From: Pseudoalteromonas translucida KMM 520
GTDB lineage: Bacteria > Pseudomonadota > Gammaproteobacteria > Enterobacterales > Alteromonadaceae
Reading direction: 5' to 3'
Assembly (NCBI RefSeq): GCF_001465295.1
Contig: NZ_CP011035.1
Span: forward strand, 1-32,000
Length of the DNA: 32,000 nt
Positions within the stretch are counted from its first letter, which is position 1; the number at the start of each line of letters is the position of its first letter. Both the position numbers and the translations under genes were made by a program. Positions 2,581 to 24,564 of this stretch are shown one piece after another. The notes beneath the pieces were generated by a model that worked only from the letters and a program-made list of their open reading frames with translations, did not search any database and was not told where the DNA came from.

Positions 2581-2800
2581 TGTAAACCCCCTTCTTTGTT
2601 AGTAAGTTGTTTTTAACTTGTGAGTTAGCTGTGTTCTTTATTTTAAATAAATAATAATTAGCCCGGTATTTAGCTATAAATCAATTTTTTACTAAGCGCT
2701 CAGCTCCAACCAGTTTATTTAACGTTAATATTGCTTTAGCTCAGAGCATATAAGGCATATACTAAAAAAATTGTTTTTAAAATTTAATACTTTGAGTGAC

Positions 2801-5800
2801 ATGTCTGCTAACTTATCTAAAACTGATCTAATGGCTATTTTTGAAGAAATTAAAAATGAGCAGGCTACCCAGTTTCCTCTTTCTGAACGCTTCATTAAAA
2901 AATTGTTTAAGCCCGCCGTATTGGCTAAAGGTAAAGCGTATTATAAAAACGGCCAAATTAGCTGGTTAGAGCATAATAGCGATTTTTCAGTTGTGGATTC
3001 AACAGTACGTGGCGACAAAGGTATTTCGTTTAATCAACGTATTGAGATCAGTAAAGTACCTACTGGTTACTCGGTAGACACTCACTGTACTTGTAACGTT
3101 AAAACGAAATGCCGCCACCTAGCTGCTATTTTACTCAAGCTTAAAATAGAACACTCTGGTGAGTACGGCGAAGACTACTTTATTAATGATTGGTTTACTG
3201 AGCTCGGAGCACTTAAAAACAGCACCGAACAACCACCTTCACAAGTGCTTTTATTTGTATTAGATATAGAAAACAATAAAGTGTTTTTAACGCCAAAAAT
3301 AGCTAATTACGATGAAAATCAAAGCTATGCCTTAGGCCGTAACCTTACCGAACAACAGCTAAACAGCTTTGTAACTCCTAGCGATTTATTAGAAAGCGAC
3401 TTTAGATTATTTAGCTGGATACGCTCACAAAATGCAGTAGGTAATATTGAGCTTAAAGGGCAATGGGGTTTTAACGCACTACAACAACTTATAGCAACCG
3501 ATAGGTTGTTTTTACAACGATCACGCGTATCTATTAAAGCGCAAACAGGTCAAGCGTTAAGCTTTAGTTGGCAGCAAGTAAAAGATCTTACCCAATTAAA
3601 AGTTAATTTAGAAAACAGCAAAAATTGGACACTAATTAAAACTACGCCACCTACTTATTTAGATCTCGATACTTATAAAGTAGGACGTATTCGCACGCCC
3701 TTAAGTGCAGATGAAATTGCCCACTTACAAACAATTCCAGCATTACACGATACTAATTTTGACCGTATTTATAAACAACTCGCTGATAACTTTGGCTCGG
3801 GTGTTATTCCGCATCCCACTAATGAAAAAAACAATACCTCAAAACTCTCTAGTAATGCTGTTTTAAAGGTAACAATGTCGGCGGAAGGCTTAACACTTTC
3901 GTTATTATTTAAATATAAAAATAAAAACTATTTGGCAGGCACCGCGCCAGAAACTCTAGTAAATAGTGCTTTTGAAAACACTGTAAAAAATGAGCTAATA
4001 AATTTAGGTTTCGATTTTTGTAAAGGGGGTTTACAAAGCGAGTTTATTTTTAATAAACAATCGCCCATTCATTTACACTGGTTAGTATATGAGGTGTTTC
4101 CTAGCTTTGTACAACGTGGCTGGAAAGTATCGGTTAGTAAAGTAAATGCTGTTAACCCACAAAGCCAAGTAGCTTTGCATGTGCACCGTACTGCGGGCCA
4201 TCAAATGCAGTGCAAAATTATATTAAACGATGCTAAAGCTACGTTATTATTTAATCAAACTGATGCTCATTATGAATCGTTAAATCGTCAAAGTGAGTTG
4301 TTTTATTACTACCCAATAGGTCGTGAGTTTGGCGCTATAAATAAAGCAGCGTTGCATTTGTTAAATGAGTTTAAACAACGATTTGAATTTATAAAAACCA
4401 GAGATGAGTTTAATATTCCGCTTTCATACTTGCCTGAACTGGTAAGTCATACTGCTATAAATGTTGAACTACACGACGAATCATTGTCGCGTTATTTAGA
4501 AGAGCTAAATAGTAATGACCAGTCGCGCCCCACTACGCTTATACAAGGGTTAAATGACTCAGTTGTATTGCGCGAGTATCAGCAGCAAGGGGTTGCGTGG
4601 TTAAACTTTTTAAAGCGTCATCAGCTTGGCGGAATTTTAGCAGACGACATGGGCTTAGGTAAAACACTGCAAGTTATTGCTTACCTAACAAGTAGTTATA
4701 ATAATGCGCAGGCAGGCCCTACACTTATTGTGTGCCCTACAAGCCTAGTAAGCAATTGGGAAAAAGAAATAACCAAGTTTGCTAAAAACTTAAAAGTAAC
4801 CACTATTTTTGGTGCCCAGCGTAATGAGTTATTACAAAATGTAGCGCAAGCACAATGTATATTAACTACTTATCCGCTACTTAAACGCGATATTGCGTAT
4901 TATTCACCACTTTATTTTGAAAATATTATACTCGACGAAGCGCAATATATTAAAAACGATACCGCCCAGGTATCGCGTTTAGTAAAGCGCCTTAATGCCG
5001 ACTTTAAGCTTTGCTTAAGTGGTACGCCAATAGAGAACAACTTGTTTGAGCTTAAATCATTACTTGATTTTGCTATGCCGTCATTACTTGGCTCACAAAC
5101 GCATTTTAAAACTCACTTTCAAACGCCAATTGAGCGTGAGAGCAATGCAGAGCGAGCACAGCAGCTTAAAGACTTAATTATGCCGTTTATATTACGCCGT
5201 ACTAAAGCGCAAGTTGCTCAAGAGTTACCGCTAAAAACAGAGTTAATTAAAGAGTTTGAATTTGAGCCAAAACAAAAAGAAATGTACCACAGTATTACCC
5301 AGGCATTAGAAGAAAAACTAACTGATCTGTTTTCTGAACAAGGCATGCAAAAAAGTAAACTTGCCTTTTTAGAAGCACTGCTAAAATTAAGGCAAATTTG
5401 TTGTCACCCTAAATTAATAGAACCAACAACTCAGGCCGGCAGTGCAAAGCTAGAATGGCTAAGTAATCGCTTACCGCTAATGCTAAGCCTAGGTAGAAAA
5501 GTAATTATATTTAGTCAGTTTACTTCTGCGCTCGATCTTATTGCTGAACGTCTAAAAGAAATAAATATAAACTTTAGTTTATTAACCGGACAAACACGCC
5601 AGCGCGATAAAGTAATTGATGAGTTTACCAGTGGTGCAACATCGGTGTTTTTAATTAGTTTAAAAGCCGGTGGTACGGGGCTTAATTTAACGCAAGCCGA
5701 CACGGTAATTCATTACGATCCTTGGTGGAACCCAGCAGTAGAAAAACAAGCCACAGATCGTGCTTATCGTATTGGCCAAACTAACCCAGTGTTTGTGTAT

Positions 5801-5947
5801 AAACTTATTATGGCAAATTCAATTGAAGAAAAAGTATTTAAAATGCAACAAGACAAGCAAGCTCTTGTAGATGCATTATTTACCGAAAAATCAATGAGTT
5901 TTACCCAGTTTGACGAGCAACAAATGCTCTCTTTAATTAAAGATTAA
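2801..5947 (+). CDS. SNF2-family helicase with N-terminal SWIM zinc finger
   Basis: SWIM CxC..CxH signature HCTCNVKTKCRH. SNF2 motifs LADDMGLGKT (I), LDEAQYIKN (II), LSGTPIEN (III), SLKAGGTGLNLT and QATDRAYRIGQ (V/VI). The ORF track starts at TTG 2771; I prefer ATG 2801 (MSANLSK), but the start is uncertain. Confidence 0.85.
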   Translation: MSANLSKTDLMAIFEEIKNEQATQFPLSERFIKKLFKPAVLAKGKAYYKNGQISWLEHNSDFSVVDSTVRGDKGISFNQRIEISKVPTGYSVDTHCTCNVKTKCRHLAAILLKLKIEHSGEYGEDYFINDWFTELGALKNSTEQPPSQVLLFVLDIENNKVFLTPKIANYDENQSYALGRNLTEQQLNSFVTPSDLLESDFRLFSWIRSQNAVGNIELKGQWGFNALQQLIATDRLFLQRSRVSIKAQTGQALSFSWQQVKDLTQLKVNLENSKNWTLIKTTPPTYLDLDTYKVGRIRTPLSADEIAHLQTIPALHDTNFDRIYKQLADNFGSGVIPHPTNEKNNTSKLSSNAVLKVTMSAEGLTLSLLFKYKNKNYLAGTAPETLVNSAFENTVKNELINLGFDFCKGGLQSEFIFNKQSPIHLHWLVYEVFPSFVQRGWKVSVSKVNAVNPQSQVALHVHRTAGHQMQCKIILNDAKATLLFNQTDAHYESLNRQSELFYYYPIGREFGAINKAALHLLNEFKQRFEFIKTRDEFNIPLSYLPELVSHTAINVELHDESLSRYLEELNSNDQSRPTTLIQGLNDSVVLREYQQQGVAWLNFLKRHQLGGILADDMGLGKTLQVIAYLTSSYNNAQAGPTLIVCPTSLVSNWEKEITKFAKNLKVTTIFGAQRNELLQNVAQAQCILTTYPLLKRDIAYYSPLYFENIILDEAQYIKNDTAQVSRLVKRLNADFKLCLSGTPIENNLFELKSLLDFAMPSLLGSQTHFKTHFQTPIERESNAERAQQLKDLIMPFILRRTKAQVAQELPLKTELIKEFEFEPKQKEMYHSITQALEEKLTDLFSEQGMQKSKLAFLEALLKLRQICCHPKLIEPTTQAGSAKLEWLSNRLPLMLSLGRKVIIFSQFTSALDLIAERLKEININFSLLTGQTRQRDKVIDEFTSGATSVFLISLKAGGTGLNLTQADTVIHYDPWWNPAVEKQATDRAYRIGQTNPVFVYKLIMANSIEEKVFKMQQDKQALVDALFTEKSMSFTQFDEQQMLSLIKD

Positions 5948-6964: not shown

Positions 6965-8431
6965 ATGTTTTCTCAGTTATTAACTCATATTGATTGGCTA
7001 AGTGTCGGCGTAGGCGTTACCGCAGGTGGCGTACTTTGTAGCCTAGTATCTGCATCGCTTAGTAAAAAATTAAAACAACAACTTAGTGAGCAACAACAGC
7101 AGTTGTCGTTATTGCAAAGTCAGTTTGATAACAAAACCCTGCAGTACACCCAATTAGCGGATGATCACGAACTTTTAGAGCATAGCCATCAAGAGCAACG
7201 CGACCAAGCACAGCACTTTAAAACCCGCTTTACCGAGCAAGAAAAACAAAGCCAGCAATATAATCAGTTTTGGCAAAAAGCTGAAGCTGAGCTAAGTGCA
7301 CTGCGCAAACAGTATAGCCAACGCGATGTAGAGCTAAATAATATACGCACTACGCTTGAGCAAAAACAACAACACTTTAGCGAGCAACTTGCGCAAATAG
7401 AGCAAAGCAAAGAGATGCTTAAAAAAGAGTTCGAAAACTTAGCAAATCAAATTTTAGAAGAAAAATCACAAAAGTTTAAAGTGCTCAATCAAGAAAGCAT
7501 TGAGCAACTATTAAAACCAGTGCAAGGCGAGCTAAAAGGTTTTCGCGACAAAATGGAGTCAATCCATGTTGAAGACTTAAAGCAACGCGCCGCGCTTAAA
7601 ACCGAGTTATTGCATTTACAAGCAAAAAGCCAAGCCATAACCGAGCAAGCCGACAGGCTCAGTAACGCCCTACAAGGACAAAAGAAAACCCAAGGTAATT
7701 GGGGCGAGTTAATGCTAGAAAACGTGCTAGACAGCGCAGGCTTACGCGCAGGCGTAGACTACAAACGCGAGGTGTCGTTTAACACCGAAGATGGCCGCTT
7801 ACGCCCCGATGTAGTTGTGTATTTACCCCAAGGTCGCCATTTAGTTATTGACGCTAAAACTTCGTTAAACGCCTACACACGCTATGTTAACGCCGATAAC
7901 GAGCTAGCAGCACAGCAAGCTATTAAAGAGCACGTTGAGGCTGTTAAGGCGCGTATAAACGAGCTTGCGAGTAAATCGTACGACCGTCTACCTGGGCTTA
8001 ACTCGCCCGAAGTAGTGGTGATGTTTGTACCAATAGAATCAGCCTTTGTTGAAGCGCTTAAATACCAAAGTGATATTTACCAGCAAGCAATCGAAAAAAA
8101 TATTTTAGTGGCAACCCCCACTACCTTGCTCACTAGTTTAAATATAGTTAAACAGCTATGGCGCTTTGAAGAACAAACTAAATACTCAAAAGAACTGGCA
8201 GCCCGAGCCGAGCGTTTTTATAACAAGCTCAACGGCTTTTTAACCAGCATGGAAGGGGTTGGCAAACAGCTCGATCGTGCTAAAGAAAGCTACGACAAAG
8301 CGTTTTCGCAGCTTTACCGAGGTAAAGGTAACTTAATTAAACAGGCAAGCGAGTTTAAAGAGCTGGGTGTATCGGTACAAAAAGAATTACCAGCAGAGAG
8401 CGTTGAACGTGCAAATTTAGAATTAGATTAA
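6965..8431 (+). CDS. rmuC: DNA recombination protein RmuC
   Basis: 488 aa. N-terminal TM helix and a long Q/E-rich coiled coil. C-terminal block GNWGELMLENVLDSAGLRAGVDYKREVSF...RPDVVVYLPQGRHLVIDAKTSLNAY is collinear with E. coli RmuC as I recall it. Confidence 0.9.
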   Translation: MFSQLLTHIDWLSVGVGVTAGGVLCSLVSASLSKKLKQQLSEQQQQLSLLQSQFDNKTLQYTQLADDHELLEHSHQEQRDQAQHFKTRFTEQEKQSQQYNQFWQKAEAELSALRKQYSQRDVELNNIRTTLEQKQQHFSEQLAQIEQSKEMLKKEFENLANQILEEKSQKFKVLNQESIEQLLKPVQGELKGFRDKMESIHVEDLKQRAALKTELLHLQAKSQAITEQADRLSNALQGQKKTQGNWGELMLENVLDSAGLRAGVDYKREVSFNTEDGRLRPDVVVYLPQGRHLVIDAKTSLNAYTRYVNADNELAAQQAIKEHVEAVKARINELASKSYDRLPGLNSPEVVVMFVPIESAFVEALKYQSDIYQQAIEKNILVATPTTLLTSLNIVKQLWRFEEQTKYSKELAARAERFYNKLNGFLTSMEGVGKQLDRAKESYDKAFSQLYRGKGNLIKQASEFKELGVSVQKELPAESVERANLELD

Positions 8432-18526: not shown

Positions 18527-18613
18527 GCATAAGCGAAAACCAACGAAAAAAAGCAGTGCCAATTAACATTAGCGTTTAGTATTATCGATTGACACAAAAA
18601 GTACCAATTGTAG

Positions 18614-18639
18614 GTCGGATAAGCGAAGCGCCATCCGAC
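18614..18639. repeat. REP-like extragenic palindrome
   Basis: GTCGGAT-AAGCGAAGCGCC-ATCCGAC, preceded by GTAG. Closely resembles the enterobacterial REP consensus GTAGGYCGGATAAGGCG...CGCCGCATCCGRC as I recall it. Confidence 0.4.
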
Positions 18640-18768
18640 ACAGTAAAATATCTTGCCAATTTATTATCAGCATTTTATGTTGTCGAATGGCTGGAAAGTG
18701 CCATTTGCGGACATTGGAAACGCTCAAATCAGCGAGCGCCGCTTTTTGGCGTCCGCTGCCTTTGCTTA

Positions 18769-19329
18769 TTAGGCATTTCCTCTGTTGCTTGGATGAATTC
18801 GCTCTTTAAGAATGCGGGTTAGATCTTCAACAGATAATGGACCAAAGTCTATATTTTTTCGAATTTCTCCGAAAACGGAAAACATTCTTCCGTGCCCTTC
18901 TAAAGATGGGCAATGAGAGTTGAAATTTCTACCTTTGAATTCTTCAAATCGCCCTAAATCATTAACAATAAAAGATGCAGTTCCCATATAGGAAGATTCA
19001 TTATTTCCATCAAATCCCGGAAACTTTGGGTCTTTTCCAAACGGTTTTGCCGCCTCTTCTAAGTTTGCTTTTTCTTCGTCTGACAACTGCTCATAACTAT
19101 GCTCAATAAAGCTCCACATATCTAATATATCAAGGACTTCTTTAACAATTTCTGGATCATCTTGATCTTCAAAAGGTATTCCAGAATATTTCCACGGTAT
19201 TGCCCATAAGTTATTACTAAATATTGCAGACTGAATAAATTTCGGCTCAATTTCACCGTCTATTTCTAGGTTCTCATACAGCTCACTCAGCATCAGGAGT
19301 ATTAGTTTTTCACCATCTGATATTTTCAT
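18769..19329 (-). CDS. YfbU-family (UPF0304) protein; third gene of the low-GC cassette
   Basis: Collinear resemblance to E. coli YfbU from memory: N-terminal xxEKLILLML (YfbU AQRLILSNQ), central FPGFDGNNESSYMGTASFIVNDLGRFEEF (YfbU [29 protein letters not shown]), and a C-terminal GRMFSVF / LSVEDL region. The track start is TTG 19341. I prefer ATG 19329, which has GGAAG 6 nt upstream. Confidence 0.65.
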   Translation of the reverse strand: MKISDGEKLILLMLSELYENLEIDGEIEPKFIQSAIFSNNLWAIPWKYSGIPFEDQDDPEIVKEVLDILDMWSFIEHSYEQLSDEEKANLEEAAKPFGKDPKFPGFDGNNESSYMGTASFIVNDLGRFEEFKGRNFNSHCPSLEGHGRMFSVFGEIRKNIDFGPLSVEDLTRILKERIHPSNRGNA

Positions 19330-19342
19330 ATTATCTTCCAAA

Positions 19343-19843
19343 TTATTTAGCTAATATTGAGCGTTCCTGACGCTCGTCAGCGAGATCTTTAACAAAGGGC
19401 ATGAAGCTATTAATCTTGTAATAAATCCTCTTCCCAACTTCTTTAATAGTTTCAGGGCCAGAAGCATCCGATAACGCTTCAATATCTTCATTTAACTCAT
19501 CGCACAGTGCGCTAGCTTTATTTACAAAGAGATCGGAGAAATTTGAGCTTTGCTCATTCAGAAGCCGTGCATACTCCTCTACCTCCTTTGCAATACTATG
19601 AAAGTCGACACCTTTAAGCTTTTTGGCGTTGCATGACGGACCTATTTTTGATACTACGGATAAAATTCTATCTGTTTGGGCATGAACTTTTGAAACCTCA
19701 ACTAAACGTCTACGATCAATCATCTCGTCTCTAACTTTTACTGCCTGAGACGCAGAATCTGCAGCCTTGTTAGCTTCGATAAATGCCCATATCGCAGCCC
19801 CGATAGATGCAACCGATCCTAGTATTGATAATATAGTTTCCAT
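19343..19843 (-). CDS. Hypothetical single-pass membrane-anchored helical protein; second gene of the cassette
   Basis: 166 aa. N-terminal hydrophobic helix ILSILGSVASIGAAIWAFI; the rest is charged and helical. GAGG Shine-Dalgarno 5 nt before the ATG. Its stop lies 1 nt from the next track ORF. No family recognised. Confidence 0.6.
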   Translation of the reverse strand: METILSILGSVASIGAAIWAFIEANKAADSASQAVKVRDEMIDRRRLVEVSKVHAQTDRILSVVSKIGPSCNAKKLKGVDFHSIAKEVEEYARLLNEQSSNFSDLFVNKASALCDELNEDIEALSDASGPETIKEVGKRIYYKINSFMPFVKDLADERQERSILAK

Positions 19844-19916
19844 TTATACCTCAGGTTGTTCTTTAGGGTTGCCTAACGCCTCAAACACAGCCGTAATTCG
19901 TCCAGTAATTGACTTG

Positions 19917-20534
19917 CTAGGTATTTTCATCACCCATAATGTGATCATAAACTTCAGGTGGTAGGTCGATGGTAATACTATGAACCTTCATTTTAATTAG
20001 CCTAAGAAATTCAGATTTAACCCATATGTAAGCTTTGGACACATTAGATATATCATCACTAGTAATTTGAATATCGTAAAACGTTCTTGGATGCGTCAAT
20101 TTATTCCTTGCTTCTTTCGCTATTAAAAAAGCGCTATATTTTTCATCATTAGTATTAAGATTAAACCCCTCAAGCCCCCAAACTTTTGATGCTAGAGAAA
20201 ACGTTTTCTTAATATTCTCATCTATGGGTATGAAAAATGGAATTGTTTCTTCATTTCTAATTTTCTCTTCAAATAAAACTTCAGAATTTTTTTTTGTGAG
20301 GGAGTAAGAAAACCTATTTAATCGTAAATCACTTTTTATTTCATACTTGATAATATGAACGACAGCCTCAATGAAAGAAAATACATTTCTTACTGCGGCT
20401 CTTCTTAAATGTTGTGACTTCTTATCAGATTCTAAAATCTTGTAAGATTCAAGGACATCATCTAATAAATGCTCAAATAGTTTATGCATTCTTGTGGATC
20501 CTTCACCTAATAATATATCGGGGGATGACGCCAT
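19917..20534 (-). CDS. Hypothetical protein with a HEPN-like Rx4H motif (candidate RNase); first gene of the cassette
   Basis: 205 aa. AGGAG Shine-Dalgarno 5 nt upstream of the ATG. R143-N-K-L-T-H148 (codons at 20108-20091) in the C-terminal half of an apparently all-helical protein. An upstream helix RRAAVRNVFSFIEAVVHII resembles the first conserved helix of several HEPN families. The fold assignment is inference. Confidence 0.5.
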   Translation of the reverse strand: MASSPDILLGEGSTRMHKLFEHLLDDVLESYKILESDKKSQHLRRAAVRNVFSFIEAVVHIIKYEIKSDLRLNRFSYSLTKKNSEVLFEEKIRNEETIPFFIPIDENIKKTFSLASKVWGLEGFNLNTNDEKYSAFLIAKEARNKLTHPRTFYDIQITSDDISNVSKAYIWVKSEFLRLIKMKVHSITIDLPPEVYDHIMGDENT

Positions 20535-20817
20535 ACTTACTCCTGATACCTAACAATTTAATAATACGCTCATCGCTGCCGACTTAACGCTCATTCATCT
20601 ACTTTATATAGTTTTAACAAATAACCTAAGTTATTACTATAACTAAGTTTTCTAAAGTTTTTAGGTAAAGTTAAATGAACCAATATGCGCGCAGCGCTCA
20701 TTTTCATGAATATATGCGCAAAAGTAGTTTGACCACTCAATTGACTATTATATTTATCCAATCTCAATGACTGGTTATCGCTCTATGCTGCCACCTAAAA
20801 AATTAAGCTTTAAAACG

Positions 20818-20846
20818 CAGTAAGCGCATATAAAATGCGCTTACTG
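20818..20846 (-). terminator. Hairpin downstream of the permease gene
   Basis: CAGTAAGCGCAT-ATAAA-ATGCGCTTACTG, a 12-bp perfect stem 32 nt past the stop. The U-tract on the minus strand is weak (CGTTTTAAAG). Confidence 0.45.
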
Positions 20847-20877
20847 GGAGTAATTTACTTTAAGCTAACTTTTAAAG

Positions 20878-22395
20878 TTAGTGCCTAAAGCTTGATACTA
20901 ACGCGGGTATACCTGGCAGCATGCCTACCATGGCCATTACGCTGGTTAGTAATACAAACATGACTAGTGGAATAACCCAGCGGCTCATGCGGGTAAGTTC
21001 TTTACTTCTTTCTTTACAACCAATAAAGCCTAAGTTGTCTAGCAATATGGTGAGTGACCAACCAAATGCAGGGTTAACTAAGCTTGAAGCAAATACTACA
21101 ATAGCAGCTGATTGGGTGGTTTTACCTACGCGAGTCATTTCCATGCCGGCTTCTAGTAGTGGAATAAATACCCCTACTATTAGCGCTACACATAGCACTG
21201 GTTGCCAAATTGCAAGGTCCATAGGGTAGCCCCATACGCCAGCAATAATACAAAATAGTGCGGTTAAAATAGCGCCTGCTGGTATTGGGCGTTTAGCAAT
21301 GGCTGCTGGCACTATGTAAGTACCCCACGATGATGCAAAGTTAGCGCCGCCCAGTAGCGAGCCAAAGGTTTGCCTAACTGATGCGCTAAGCATGGTGTCG
21401 TCTATGTTCATTTGTACTTTTTCGGTACGTTTTGGGTAGCTTATTTTTTGAAATACCTGATGGCCTAAAAAGTCCGGCGACCACATAGCAACAGCAAGCA
21501 CTGCAAATGGCAGTACTACTACAAAGCTTTCTAGGGTAGGTAGGCCTAACATCCAGCCGGTGTCTTCGCCCCACCAGTACATAGGGTCCATGTTTGGTAG
21601 GCCCGGTGCAGTATGAAACTCAAACGGTGCGCCTAATGCAAAGGCTATTGCGCCGCCTAAAATACAGCTAAGTGGTACGGCTAACCAACGCTTTTTAAAA
21701 TGCTCTAACATGGCATATAAAATTATAGTGGAAAAAATAACAATAAAGGCAATGTGGGTCATATCGATGGCTTCGGCCCATGCAAACAGCTTTTTAACTT
21801 GCGAGGTTATGCCTATAAACCCTAGGTAGAGTAAAAGCCCGCCACATACGCCTTTACTGGTTAGTTTAGCCAGTAGTGTTCCGCCTTTACTTATTGCCAA
21901 AATTAAACCAAAGGCTGCTATGAGCAAGCCAAATGCCATAGGATGCCCCCCTGCTGCAACTACAATTGGAATTAACGGAATTAAAGGGCCATGAGTACCG
22001 GCTAAGTTAGCGGTAGGTAAAATAAAGCCTGAAAACAAAATAATAAAAAAGGCGACGATAAGTAATTCGTAACGCACGTTTTCTAAAACAAAAGCGTCGC
22101 TTAAACCCAGTGGGCTTGCAAACGTTGCGGCAATGGCGGCAACCATAACCACTTTACCTATGGTGGCAGCCATTGCAGGAATAGCGTCTTCAAATTCGAA
22201 CCTGTAGTCTCTAAAGGGTAAGTTTGGGCGCCAGCGTTTAGGCTGCATAATTTGCAGCTCGTGTTCTAGGTATTCGTCTCGGCTATTAAACTCAGAGCTA
22301 GGCTTGTATAGATTTTTATAGCTATTGGCAGCGGTTTGAGTATCCGCTCCTGGTTTTGCATCAGATGAAATATCATCTTGCGGCGTGGTATTCAT
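20878..22395 (-). CDS. Polytopic inner-membrane permease, family not confidently recognised
   Basis: About 12 hydrophobic segments and a hydrophilic N-terminus. I prefer ATG 22395 (AGGAG 6 nt upstream, MNTTPQ) over the GTG at 22422 in the track. Confidence 0.7.
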   Translation of the reverse strand: MNTTPQDDISSDAKPGADTQTAANSYKNLYKPSSEFNSRDEYLEHELQIMQPKRWRPNLPFRDYRFEFEDAIPAMAATIGKVVMVAAIAATFASPLGLSDAFVLENVRYELLIVAFFIILFSGFILPTANLAGTHGPLIPLIPIVVAAGGHPMAFGLLIAAFGLILAISKGGTLLAKLTSKGVCGGLLLYLGFIGITSQVKKLFAWAEAIDMTHIAFIVIFSTIILYAMLEHFKKRWLAVPLSCILGGAIAFALGAPFEFHTAPGLPNMDPMYWWGEDTGWMLGLPTLESFVVVLPFAVLAVAMWSPDFLGHQVFQKISYPKRTEKVQMNIDDTMLSASVRQTFGSLLGGANFASSWGTYIVPAAIAKRPIPAGAILTALFCIIAGVWGYPMDLAIWQPVLCVALIVGVFIPLLEAGMEMTRVGKTTQSAAIVVFASSLVNPAFGWSLTILLDNLGFIGCKERSKELTRMSRWVIPLVMFVLLTSVMAMVGMLPGIPALVSSFRH

Positions 22396-22999
22396 GGCTT
22401 CTCCTGCAACATAGTTGCTCACTCAAAATAAAAATACAGCTTTGTTTAAAGCAAATAAAAATTGAGGCGGCAGGATAAAGCAGCTAGCAACAGATTACGA
22501 TTAGTCAAAGGTCTTGTATGAAACCATTTTATAACATTTATATACCTATGGCTGAATGTAGGATTTGGTGTTAAATGTATTTTTTATTGTTTTTAAACAG
22601 ATGGTTAGCTTGTTTTTATAAAGGTTAAAGTGCAGTGGATTATTTTTTAGCATTTACAGCAATAATAAAAATTAAAATAATTTTATCTGTATTTATATTA
22701 TGTTACTTAAACAAATAGGGTATTTAGCCATGTTTTAGCTGAAAATTTAACTAAAGTTTGGTTATTGATACAAAAATAACGCAGCAGAATAATAATGTGT
22801 GGCTTTGCATCTCTCTATAATTAGCAGGTTATTACAAGCGAGCTTAATTGCTTTAACAAGGATAAAAAACAGTTTACTGTTTTTGTTAGCGCTCATCAGA
22901 TAGAATCCGCCTTATGATTTTTACTTGTTAAGTATTTTCAAAACCGTAACGTTTAAATAGCGAGACCTTCTTATCCTTTTAGAAAATGATACAAAACCA

Positions 23000-23869
23000 A
23001 TGAATGATATAACGATAGCAACTCACAACGGTACTTTTCATGCAGATGATGTTTTTAGTGTAGCTGCACTTAAGTATATTTATCCTTCTTTTAAACTTAT
23101 ACGCACCCGCGATATGGAGCTTATAAGCAAAGCCGATGTTGTGATTGATGTAGGTGGCGAGCATAACCCAGAGACAGGCCGTTTTGATCACCATCAACGT
23201 GGCGGTGCCGGGGCGCGTGAAAACGGTATTCCTTTTTCTTCATTTGGTTTAATTTGGCAAAAATATGGCCTTGAAATATGCCAAGGCAGCCAAGAAACAG
23301 CCAATGCAATTGACTCTGGTTTAGTATCTACTATTGATGCAATTGACTGCGGCCATGTTGAAGGCGTTGCTAAAGGCATTAGCCTTAGCCAAACTATTTC
23401 AATGTTTAACCCAACGTGGCAAGAAGAGAGCAACTTTGATGCCTGTTTTGATGAAGCGGTTGAGTTTGCATCGCGCATTTTAACTCGCTTTATTGCTGCG
23501 GCTAACGGTGGCATTAATGCAAAAGCAATTGTTGCTAAAGCGATTGAAAATGCCGCTGATCCACGCGTAATTGTGTTAGAGCAATACACACCGTGGAAAA
23601 AAACCGTGCATGCGCTTTCTGATAAAGCATTATATATGGTTTATCCTTCGCACTCTGGCCAGTGGATTGTGCAAACTGTACCGGTTGAGCCAGGATCGTT
23701 TGAAGACCGCAAGTCACTCCCAAAACCGTGGGCTGGTTTATCTGATAAAGAATTTCAGGACGAAACTGGGCTTGAAGATGCTGTTTTTTGTCATAACGGT
23801 TTATTTATTGCTGGCGCAAAGTCGTTTTCAAGTGCGATGAAAATGGCAGCAATGGCGCTAGAAGCCTAG
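23000..23869 (+). CDS. MYG1-family (UPF0160) metal-dependent hydrolase/exonuclease
   Basis: 289 aa. Signature THNGTFHADDVFSVAAL, DVGG, and FDHHQ. Confidence 0.9.
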   Translation: MNDITIATHNGTFHADDVFSVAALKYIYPSFKLIRTRDMELISKADVVIDVGGEHNPETGRFDHHQRGGAGARENGIPFSSFGLIWQKYGLEICQGSQETANAIDSGLVSTIDAIDCGHVEGVAKGISLSQTISMFNPTWQEESNFDACFDEAVEFASRILTRFIAAANGGINAKAIVAKAIENAADPRVIVLEQYTPWKKTVHALSDKALYMVYPSHSGQWIVQTVPVEPGSFEDRKSLPKPWAGLSDKEFQDETGLEDAVFCHNGLFIAGAKSFSSAMKMAAMALEA

Positions 23870-23971: not shown

Positions 23972-24421
23972 TTATTCTTTAACTGCTATGGCTATTTCTA
24001 CTTCATCAGCACTTTTGTAATATTCGTAGTCGCTGCTGTAGGTACGGGTAAAGAGACAGTCGTCTGAGCTAAAGTATTGCCAAATTTCGCCCCACAGATC
24101 GATTACCGCATCGGGCATTTCACCTGTCCCGTTAAATACTAAATAACTCCCTGCCTCGGTAGTTACTTTTACTGACTTTTTATCTCCAATCGACAAGTCG
24201 TCGCAACAGGCTATTACATCAAACTCACCGGTTACATCGCTTTCATAGTTAGTGTAAACACCATACGTTTTTGTATTTTTTGTTAGCTGTTGCCCATGTT
24301 TTTCACCAAATTTTTGCCAAAGCTCCGTTATTTTTGCAGTGCCAGAGTTCATTTCATCGGCGTTACACGTTCTTACCTTTAAACCAGTTAAAGTTATACT
24401 TGGGAGTTGCTTTACTTGCAT
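23972..24421 (-). CDS. GyrI-like small-molecule-binding domain protein
   Basis: Pattern LTGLKVRT..N......I.ELWQKF...YGVY..YE....G.FD....., ...GSYLVF.G.G.MP..V...W..IW..., ...YEYY...DEVEIAIAV is typical of GyrI-like/AraC effector-binding domains. ATG 24421 has an AGGAAGG Shine-Dalgarno; the track start is 24445. Confidence 0.7.
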   Translation of the reverse strand: MQVKQLPSITLTGLKVRTCNADEMNSGTAKITELWQKFGEKHGQQLTKNTKTYGVYTNYESDVTGEFDVIACCDDLSIGDKKSVKVTTEAGSYLVFNGTGEMPDAVIDLWGEIWQYFSSDDCLFTRTYSSDYEYYKSADEVEIAIAVKE

Positions 24422-24564
24422 TATGACCTTCCTTACTTCAATCACTTAGCTTTAACGTAACTATAACGTAACAGAAAAACCATTATGGACTGTAACTATT
24501 TATAAGTCCTTTAAATTATTTAATTTGAACTCTGGTTAAGAGATTTACTAATGTATTACAGCAA

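Follow-up and report, generated by a model that had tools for sequence, protein, structure and literature searches.

We analysed the first 32,000 nucleotides (nt) of contig NZ_CP011035.1 of Pseudoalteromonas translucida KMM 520, here called the window, which lie on chromosome II of this strain, and report on a segment that carries three minus-strand genes. Gene 1 encodes a HEPN-like protein, gene 2 a protein with a predicted membrane anchor, and gene 3 a protein of the YfbU family. The three open reading frames (ORFs) are co-directional, as a first-pass annotation of the window had described, and they proved to be real and intact; purifying selection acts on all three, with ratios of nonsynonymous to synonymous substitution rates (dN/dS) of 0.15–0.21 for gene 1 against its nearest DNA homologs, 0.04–0.13 for gene 2 and 0.04–0.11 for gene 3. 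The same annotation took the trio for one three-gene cassette; DNA homology and core sites divide it into two units, whose integron nature had been missed. Cassette 1 runs from a core site (G^TTAGGT) over gene 1 to a decayed attC site, and cassette 2, which holds gene 2 and gene 3, from a second core site (G^TTAGGC) to an attC-like site. Each of them is found alone in other genera, with homology that ends at the G^TT recombination points. The positions of all features are collected in Table 1.

Table 1. Features of the two-cassette segment and of its borders, in window positions.
Feature	Positions	Strand	Remark
Gene 1, 205 amino acids (aa), cargo of cassette 1	19917-20534	minus	HEPN-like
Gene 2, 166 aa, first gene of cassette 2	19343-19843	minus	N-terminally membrane-anchored, helical (predicted)
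Gene 3, 186 aa from ATG, second gene of cassette 2	18769-19329	minus	YfbU family
Degenerate attC of cassette 1	19871-19922	minus	from R''-like ACCTAGC over the gene 1 stop to GTTAGGC
attC of cassette 2	18719-18774	minus	from GCCTAAT over the gene 3 stop to GAGCG^TT
Pseudoalteromonas attC- or attI-like element	20548-20783	minus	ends in core site GTTAGGT (20554-20548)
Variable two-cassette insert	18717-20762	minus	no counterpart in Pseudoalteromonas sp. HL-AS2
117-nt repeat with REP-like palindrome GTCGGATGGCGCTTCGCTTATCCGAC	18600-18716		right-hand edge of the variable slot

To compare the neighbourhoods of the three genes we used 32 loci, 13 with a homolog of gene 1 and 19 with the pair of gene 2 and gene 3, together with as much as 6 kb of flanking DNA per side, if the contig was long enough. 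None of the 32 contains both gene 1 and the pair. The 13 gene 1 loci contain no homolog of gene 2 or gene 3 in the fetched flanks; they come from Larkinella, Castellaniella, Polaromonas, Nitrosomonas, Stutzerimonas, a deltaproteobacterium and several metagenome contigs, and one of the homologs without the pair is 79% identical to gene 1. The pair, on the other side, is intact in all 19 of its loci, which represent about ten genera, and gene 1 is present in none of these. Its hosts include Vibrio cyclitrophicus, V. cholerae, Shewanella algae, Aeromonas hydrophila, Rhodoferax, Vreelandella, Alcanivorax, Photobacterium and a Raoultella IncFII plasmid. The suggestion that the trio acts as a single module therefore failed the co-occurrence check.

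The close association of gene 2 and gene 3 held. In the window the gene 2 stop codon precedes the gene 3 ATG by 13 nt, and the two genes co-occur strictly. At the pair loci gene 2 ends 1–15 nt before the YfbU start, and in Aeromonas (L014) the two overlap by 4 nt. With the exception of the copy in a Yersinia phage, every YfbU that reaches 54% identity or more to gene 3 is preceded by a gene 2 homolog. A conserved third gene beside the pair was considered and rejected, as the neighbours of 271, 275, 228, 236 and 282 aa are mutually unrelated. A 429-aa protein without Pfam or PADLOC match was observed at two loci with near-identical N-termini: beside the pair in Shewanella algae (L008, 8180–9469), and directly upstream of the gene 1 homolog in Castellaniella (L002, 4642–5931). 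This protein is another mobile gene of cassette neighbourhoods.

The borders of the units were determined from sequence boxes, homology boundaries and folding, on which the attC calls are based. By blastn the module of cassette 1 (20555–19912) is 82.8% identical to metagenome contigs L017 and L018, and that of cassette 2 (19877–18719) is 89.5% identical to V. cyclitrophicus (L007) and 77% identical to Shewanella algae. Homology of cassette 1 begins at 20555, 1 nt upstream of the G of its core site, while that of cassette 2 to Vibrio begins exactly at G19877, the first position of the second core site (GTTAGGC, 19877–19871). At the right end of cassette 2 the GTT of GAGCGTT (18721–18719) aligns with the GTT of GTTAGGT in L007.

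Such boxes recur at the homologous loci. The motif GTTRRRY occurs at −20 to −25 of the gene 1 start in seven of ten loci and at −34/−35 of the gene 2 start in seven of nine, compared to a background of 8% that counts any position within 80 nt. The R'' box GCCTAAC lies over the gene 1 stop codon in 5/10 loci, with a background of 1%. Among the gene 1 homologs, sites of the form GCCTAAC...GTTA are present in L005, L017 and L018 (full attC sites in L005 and L018), and the Stutzerimonas homolog is located between two copies of one attC. The L007 copy of the cassette 2 attC forms a canonical R''/R' hairpin (−10.4 kcal/mol, z-score −1.55). In the window the inner stem of this site is strong (z −2.1), and the R' half is replaced after GTT. 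On chromosome 2 of V. cholerae the pair occurs between VCR/attC repeats in three cassette contexts, and the strains diverge right after the GTTA downstream of the pair.

The core site of cassette 1 is at the same time the end of an element of about 236 bp that is present once in the window. It is 82–91% identical on at least six Pseudoalteromonas replicons, with homology up to 20817; carriers are pMEGA of TAC125, P. arctica, P. nigrifaciens, P. rhizosphaerae, KG3 and CuT4-3. All aligned copies end with ...TATTAAATTGTT and are then followed by different genes, namely gene 1, a glyoxalase-superfamily gene, a gene for a 121-aa hypothetical protein, or a tyrosine recombinase with an IS91 transposase. 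As single-stranded DNA the element has an outer stem in which TACCTAA pairs with TTAGGTA; its overall fold is not significant (z −0.7). The element resembles an attC or attI site that is specific to this lineage.

We conclude with high confidence that the variable segment is a small integrase-less cluster of integron-type cassettes (CALIN-like) with two independent cassettes. Some results weigh against this. Core sites are missing in Aeromonas (L014), on the Raoultella plasmid (L026) and at the gene 1 loci L001–L003; the attC of gene 1 in the window folds no better than shuffled sequences (z 0.18); and a scan for promoters and terminators stayed at the level of shuffles, without a convincing promoter for either cassette. 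An integron integrase or tyrosine recombinase was not found in the ten other window ORFs scanned, nor is an integrase annotated in the syntenic HL-AS2 region, and therefore the region is at most an integrase-less attC cluster of the CALIN type and not a complete integron.

A different explanation would be that the trio forms one operon-encoded system, with a HEPN RNase as effector and the membrane and YfbU proteins as sensor or regulators. The co-directional layout of closely spaced genes (gaps of 73 nt and 13 nt), between which no terminator-like site was called on the minus strand, would fit such an operon, as would the fact that all three gene families occur in defence-type neighbourhoods. 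Yet there are the 13 loci with gene 1 and without the pair and the 19 with the pair and without gene 1, the stretch between gene 1 and gene 2 contains a GTTAGGC core site as well as the remnant of an attC, cross-genus DNA homology breaks exactly between these two genes, and their guanine-plus-cytosine (GC) contents differ by 9 points. We regard the one-system explanation as very improbable. Under the two-cassette reading gene 1 would stand next to the pair by an accident of cassette stacking and not through a functional link.

The GC content also bears on the earlier description of the segment as low in GC. The segment as a whole has 35.9% GC, while the window averages 39.0%; among windows of the same size it ranks at the 8th percentile. 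It is indeed below average, but the range of 28–34% given before was too low. Gene 1 has 31.6% GC, gene 2 has 40.3%, which is about the window mean, and gene 3 has 36.2%; gene 1 and gene 2 thus lie 9 points apart.

The location is variable. Synteny with the near-identical chromid of Pseudoalteromonas sp. HL-AS2 (NZ_CP133572) stops at 20762/20763 and at 18716/18717; the flanks are 97.7% (20763–23500) and 92% (18600–18716) identical, and there is no match in between. The slot is bordered by the terminator of a DUF3360 membrane-protein gene on one side and by the repeat with its REP-like palindrome on the other, as had been stated before, and the cassette-flanking DNA resembles Pseudoalteromonas chromids in the DNA comparison. 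In HL-AS2 the slot (L022, 3377–6191) contains a 215-aa GIY-YIG-like gene and a gene for a 656-aa protein of the PADLOC candidate defence family PDC-S56 (E = 4e-237). Because HL-AS2 fills the slot with other, defence-type genes, the slot counts as a hot spot in which defence-type occupants alternate, and both cassettes are accessory, in line with the variable, accessory location that had been proposed. The 215-aa and 656-aa proteins were compared with the cassette proteins and rejected as homologs. The PDC-S56 protein has an RNSYLH motif of its own near the C-terminus.

Some further features of the surroundings were recorded. The 117-nt repeat has two copies in HL-AS2 (91–92% identical), which are positioned around an EamA transporter fragment, and it is found in strains CuT4-3 and HL-AS1 too. 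Rfam and tRNA scans of the intergenic flanks gave nothing. At a distance of 3.2 kb from the cassettes (23972–24445, minus strand) we observed a gene for a 157-aa Cass2 “integron-associated effector binding protein”/GyrI-like protein, which adjoins a LysR regulator. The start of the window carries a ParA-like ATPase (160–1398), followed by a 320-aa ORF without Pfam match, a 1058-aa SNF2-family helicase (2771–5947) and RmuC (6965–8431). These genes fit an origin-proximal part of the chromid, because the locus tag of gene 1 is PTRA_b0018.

The protein of gene 1 is on record, with identical sequence, as PTRA_b0018 on a 757-kb replicon of P. translucida KMM 520. The AGGAG Shine-Dalgarno sequence and the Rx4H motif (R143-N-K-L-T-H148) described for it are both present, the former 6 nt upstream of the ATG. 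Its close family consists of 17 proteins in an index of 5.8 billion proteins, and in these 17 homologs R143, L146, T147, H148 and P149 are invariant. A profile of the 17 proteins retrieves 2,276 cluster representatives at E ≤ 1e-3, and in 63 diverse members of this superfamily R143 and H148 are conserved to at least 90% and P149 is invariant.

A further hint towards a HEPN fold arises from the AlphaFold2 (AF2) model of gene 1, which is almost wholly helical (predicted local distance difference test, pLDDT, 86; predicted template-modelling score, pTM, 0.81). The top PDB matches by template-modelling (TM) score in Foldseek are HepT HEPN toxins, with TM 0.55–0.63 yet with E-values of at least 0.6; for the chains 8xdj, 8xeh and 6m6w the TM on the target is 0.57–0.63 and the probability 0.85–0.96. 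In BFVD the second-ranked match is a phage protein labelled “MAE-28990/MAE-18760-like HEPN domain” (probability 0.99), with TM 0.52 over the full length and E 0.11. The HEPN assignment is thus in part borne out, by the invariant Rx4H motif and by top structural matches of the HepT and MAE_28990 type, but no HEPN profile matches significantly.

The negative side has to be given in full: every Foldseek E-value for gene 1 exceeds 0.05, and the Pfam HEPN families have no significant match in gene 1 or in 26 relatives. Gene 1 itself has no Pfam HEPN match at E up to 1, 16 homologs gave a single HepT-like Pfam match (E = 0.065), and ten distant relatives taken from the cluster representatives have no Pfam match. 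Significant matches of gene 1 were likewise not found in Pfam, NCBIfam, PADLOC or PHROGs, and profiles built from 17 and from 63 sequences gave nothing meaningful against PDB sequences. A search of phage genomes by tblastn with gene 1 gave no match, and a UniRef label “RiboL-PSP-HEPN” on the identical protein is not reproducible with Pfam. We consider gene 1 to be probably a HEPN-like protein of an uncatalogued family that is absent from Pfam.

An MNT-type nucleotidyltransferase is not annotated beside gene 1 or, by gene and Pfam calls, beside its homologs in L017–L021; for the gene 1 loci L001–L006 raw ORFs were listed only, without domain searches. The deltaproteobacterial homolog (L006, 6001–6574) is split into three reading-frame pieces and is therefore probably a pseudogene; a 1047-aa ORF was seen near it on the opposite strand.

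Gene 2 agrees with its previous description as an N-terminally anchored helical protein. A hydrophobic helix spans residues 4–22, with a Kyte-Doolittle mean of 2.1 over 19 residues, and the transmembrane segment SILGSVASIGAAIWAF is conserved and rich in small residues, as is a GPSCN motif conserved. The AF2 model (pLDDT 84.6) is all-helical and predicts a long N-terminal helix followed by three further helices. There are 113 homologs, those in Vibrio and Shewanella being 85–89% identical. Gene 2 has no match to any Pfam family, and a profile search of the PDB gave nothing meaningful. Foldseek returned generic four-helix bundles only, which we set aside as functionally uninformative: designed proteins, entries of BRIL-fused G-protein-coupled receptors (7c61, 8cic), PsbQ and p130Cas. 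The profile matches of gene 1 and gene 2 in Pfam, NCBIfam, PADLOC and PHROGs, to Cas6b_C, Cas11, FtsL and a tail protein, are at chance level and were rejected as noise.

Gene 3 is a YfbU-family protein, as had been recognised: it matches Pfam YfbU (PF03887) with 71.9 bits (cut-off 25; E = 8.5e-20) over model positions 1–164 of 166, and in sequence it matches the crystal structures PDB 1WPB and 4LR3 (E about 3e-6). An alternative TTG start at 19341 would extend it to 190 aa (ORF 18769–19341). Since the score against the NCBIfam equivalog PRK05445 (54.2 bits) lies under the cut-off of 90, gene 3 belongs to a divergent subfamily and is not the housekeeping ortholog. Its homologs number 767, and it matches phrog_6084, the YfbU family of PHROGs, with E = 1e-42.

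YfbU genes without partner were observed on other mobile elements. The P2-like temperate Yersinia phage vB_YenM_324 (L036, 2974–3552) carries a solo YfbU gene that is 54% identical to gene 3 and lies directly after tail and baseplate genes, the accessory-gene position of such phages. Its 551-aa neighbour was checked for a hidden gene 2-like domain; it contains none (hhalign probability 0.1) and is baseplate-like. More distant plasmid copies of YfbU, with identities to gene 3 of 38% or below, are also solo. Two of the carriers are very small: the 3430-bp P. aeruginosa plasmid pXM8-3 (L029) has only three annotated genes, for a 430-aa hypothetical protein, a tyrosine recombinase and YfbU, and on A. 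lwoffii pAL_065-6 (L028) the YfbU gene adjoins an Abi-family gene. On pXcaw58 one YfbU gene adjoins RelE/ParE.

For the function of the cassettes, published cases provide the frame. Kamadhenu, a 180-aa YfbU-fold protein from a Lactococcus plasmid, confers phage resistance of the abortive-infection type as a single gene (PMC11381338), and in phages that escape it, G22 of a Sak-like single-strand annealing protein is mutated (PMC12184496). For E. coli, yfbU was reported to be required for cells to die when their DNA is damaged (PMC2646832). Cassettes of the V. cholerae chromosomal integron often encode small anti-phage systems, among them Esos, which has only a HEPN-like domain, and Sucellos, a two-gene system with a membrane pore protein; this study makes no mention of a YfbU, PF03887 or UPF0304 cassette (bioRxiv 10.1101/2024.07.02.601686). 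At other loci the cassette types studied here have the defence or toxin neighbours DndB, SLFN_AlbA_2, NB-ARC with Phd/ParE, Mrr_cat, AbiJ_NTD4/Abi_C, CAP12-PCTIR_TIR and putAbiC.

The defence or toxin role proposed earlier is reasonable, because Kamadhenu, a YfbU-fold protein, is an experimentally shown abortive-infection system; the PADLOC check of this role gave no model match. We give a defence or addiction function of the cassettes about an even chance of being right. The combined statement, that the segment has the cassette structure described above and that the cassettes carry defence or addiction modules, we hold to be somewhat probable.

In the mechanism that we propose, each cassette would be a self-contained abortive-infection or addiction module, as in chromosomal integrons. 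Cassette 1 would encode a stand-alone HEPN-like RNase which, once activated, could cleave RNA by means of R143 and H148 and so lead to growth arrest. Cassette 2 would encode a YfbU-fold protein and a membrane-anchored four-helix partner, whose ratio may be kept fixed through translational coupling. By analogy with Kamadhenu the YfbU component may sense phage replication or recombination, and the membrane protein could then be the effector or an anchor; it might, for instance, form oligomers that compromise the membrane. To cast gene 2 as effector and not as regulator or antitoxin is a guess, because it has no informative homolog or fold match.

A more specific version of this joins several claims and is put forward tentatively, as we think it may well be wrong. 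According to it, gene 2 and YfbU would form an undescribed two-component abortive-infection system that integrons have spread among marine Gammaproteobacteria including V. cholerae, with YfbU as the sensor of phage recombination or replication proteins, as Kamadhenu seems to be, and with the four-helix partner, switched on by YfbU, collapsing the membrane. Gene 1 would belong to a large HEPN-like RNase superfamily outside Pfam, with over 2,000 cluster representatives, that also spreads in single-gene defence cassettes.

One result counts against a defence function in general. None of the PADLOC-DB v2.0.0 models matches the three proteins (gene 1 and gene 2 at chance level with E ≥ 0.0027, gene 3 without any match), while one must keep in mind that this release is older than Kamadhenu.

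It is also conceivable that cassette 2 works as a toxin-antitoxin addiction module, as cassette 1 possibly does too, and thereby stabilises arrays, plasmids or islands and does not act against phages. Toxin-antitoxin cassettes are common in chromosomal integrons, which they stabilise (bioRxiv 10.1101/2024.07.02.601686), the pair has the two-gene, translationally coupled layout, YfbU is one of three annotated genes on a 3.4-kb plasmid and adjoins RelE/ParE on pXcaw58, and E. coli yfbU has been called a “death gene” after DNA damage (PMC2646832). However, the two proteins of the pair show no resemblance to known toxin or antitoxin families, exceed typical type II components in size and have no DNA-binding antitoxin domain, the solo YfbU genes of Kamadhenu, the Yersinia phage and the plasmids speak against obligatory pairing, and the sole YfbU-fold protein of a mobile element that has been tested gave phage resistance (PMC11381338). 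In sum we find a pure addiction role unlikely, though it is the chief rival of the proposed mechanism.

Still less likely, in our judgement, is that the cassettes carry ordinary cargo unrelated to defence, with gene 3 as a paralog of the housekeeping YfbU that takes part in the response to stress or DNA damage, gene 2 as its membrane partner and gene 1 as a non-catalytic helical protein in which the RxxxxH motif has some other use. E. coli-type YfbU is after all a conserved chromosomal gene of unknown function, many integron cassettes carry non-defence functions, no defence model matches the three proteins and no HEPN profile is significant. Against such cargo one can hold that gene 3 scores under the equivalog cut-off (54 vs 90 bits), that the homologous modules are sporadically distributed with a nucleotide identity of 77–89% across genera, that defence genes recur as neighbours and the slot holds PDC-S56 in the sister strain, and that a superfamily with over 2,000 cluster representatives shares the invariant RNxLTHP motif.

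That a hot spot carries two integron-type cassettes is in itself ordinary. What changes is the unit of study, which should be two portable cassettes and not a three-gene HEPN system, and the case is a caution that adjacent genes in attC clusters are not to be read as operons. The pair of gene 2 and YfbU is compact (about 1.16 kb), strongly conserved and horizontally exchanged, and a strictly paired, widely spread cassette of a membrane protein and YfbU is undescribed in the literature searched. If the pair is a defence system, YfbU-based defence, for which Kamadhenu is the one experimental case, would reach the Gram-negatives, and the membrane partner could help to explain how the YfbU fold acts. 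The gene 1 family, with its invariant RNxLTHP motif, is uncatalogued and missing from Pfam. The locus also indicates that integron-type cassettes with candidate defence cargo can become established away from integrons, at hot spots where sister strains have different candidate defence genes.

Among known systems, the HepT/MntA HEPN toxins resemble gene 1 by the Rx4H motif in a helical bundle, which for gene 1 is a model. They differ in size, as HepT has about 130 aa compared to the 205 aa of gene 1, which adds a β-hairpin and helices, and in the MNT partner, which was not seen at the gene 1 loci examined. Esos shares with gene 1 the HEPN-like domain alone, by description, and the likeness of Sucellos to the pair, a two-gene cassette with a membrane protein, is loose. 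Like the cassettes of the V. cholerae chromosomal integron in general, those reported here are small units of one or two genes with attC or attC-like borders, and the pair itself is bounded by VCR in some V. cholerae strains; they differ in that the cassettes of the window lie outside a complete integron, as the ten window ORFs scanned include no integrase.

E. coli YfbU (UPF0304) belongs to the same Pfam family, PF03887, and is collinear with gene 3 over the whole domain, but it is only about 28% identical over approximately half the length. It is moreover a core gene, whereas gene 3 is mobile, sporadic and paired with gene 2. The neighbour of yfbU in E. coli is yfbV, which encodes an unrelated membrane protein.

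The comparison with Kamadhenu, whose assignment is taken from PMC11381338, rests on a YfbU-fold protein encoded on a mobile element in both cases. Kamadhenu is a single gene, whereas here the YfbU gene is preceded by a coupled gene for a 166-aa membrane-anchored protein in 19 of 19 loci, and Kamadhenu comes from a Gram-positive plasmid whereas the pair reported here is an integron cassette in marine Gammaproteobacteria. By analogy we therefore propose that cassette 2 may represent a two-gene variant of the YfbU-based Kamadhenu system.

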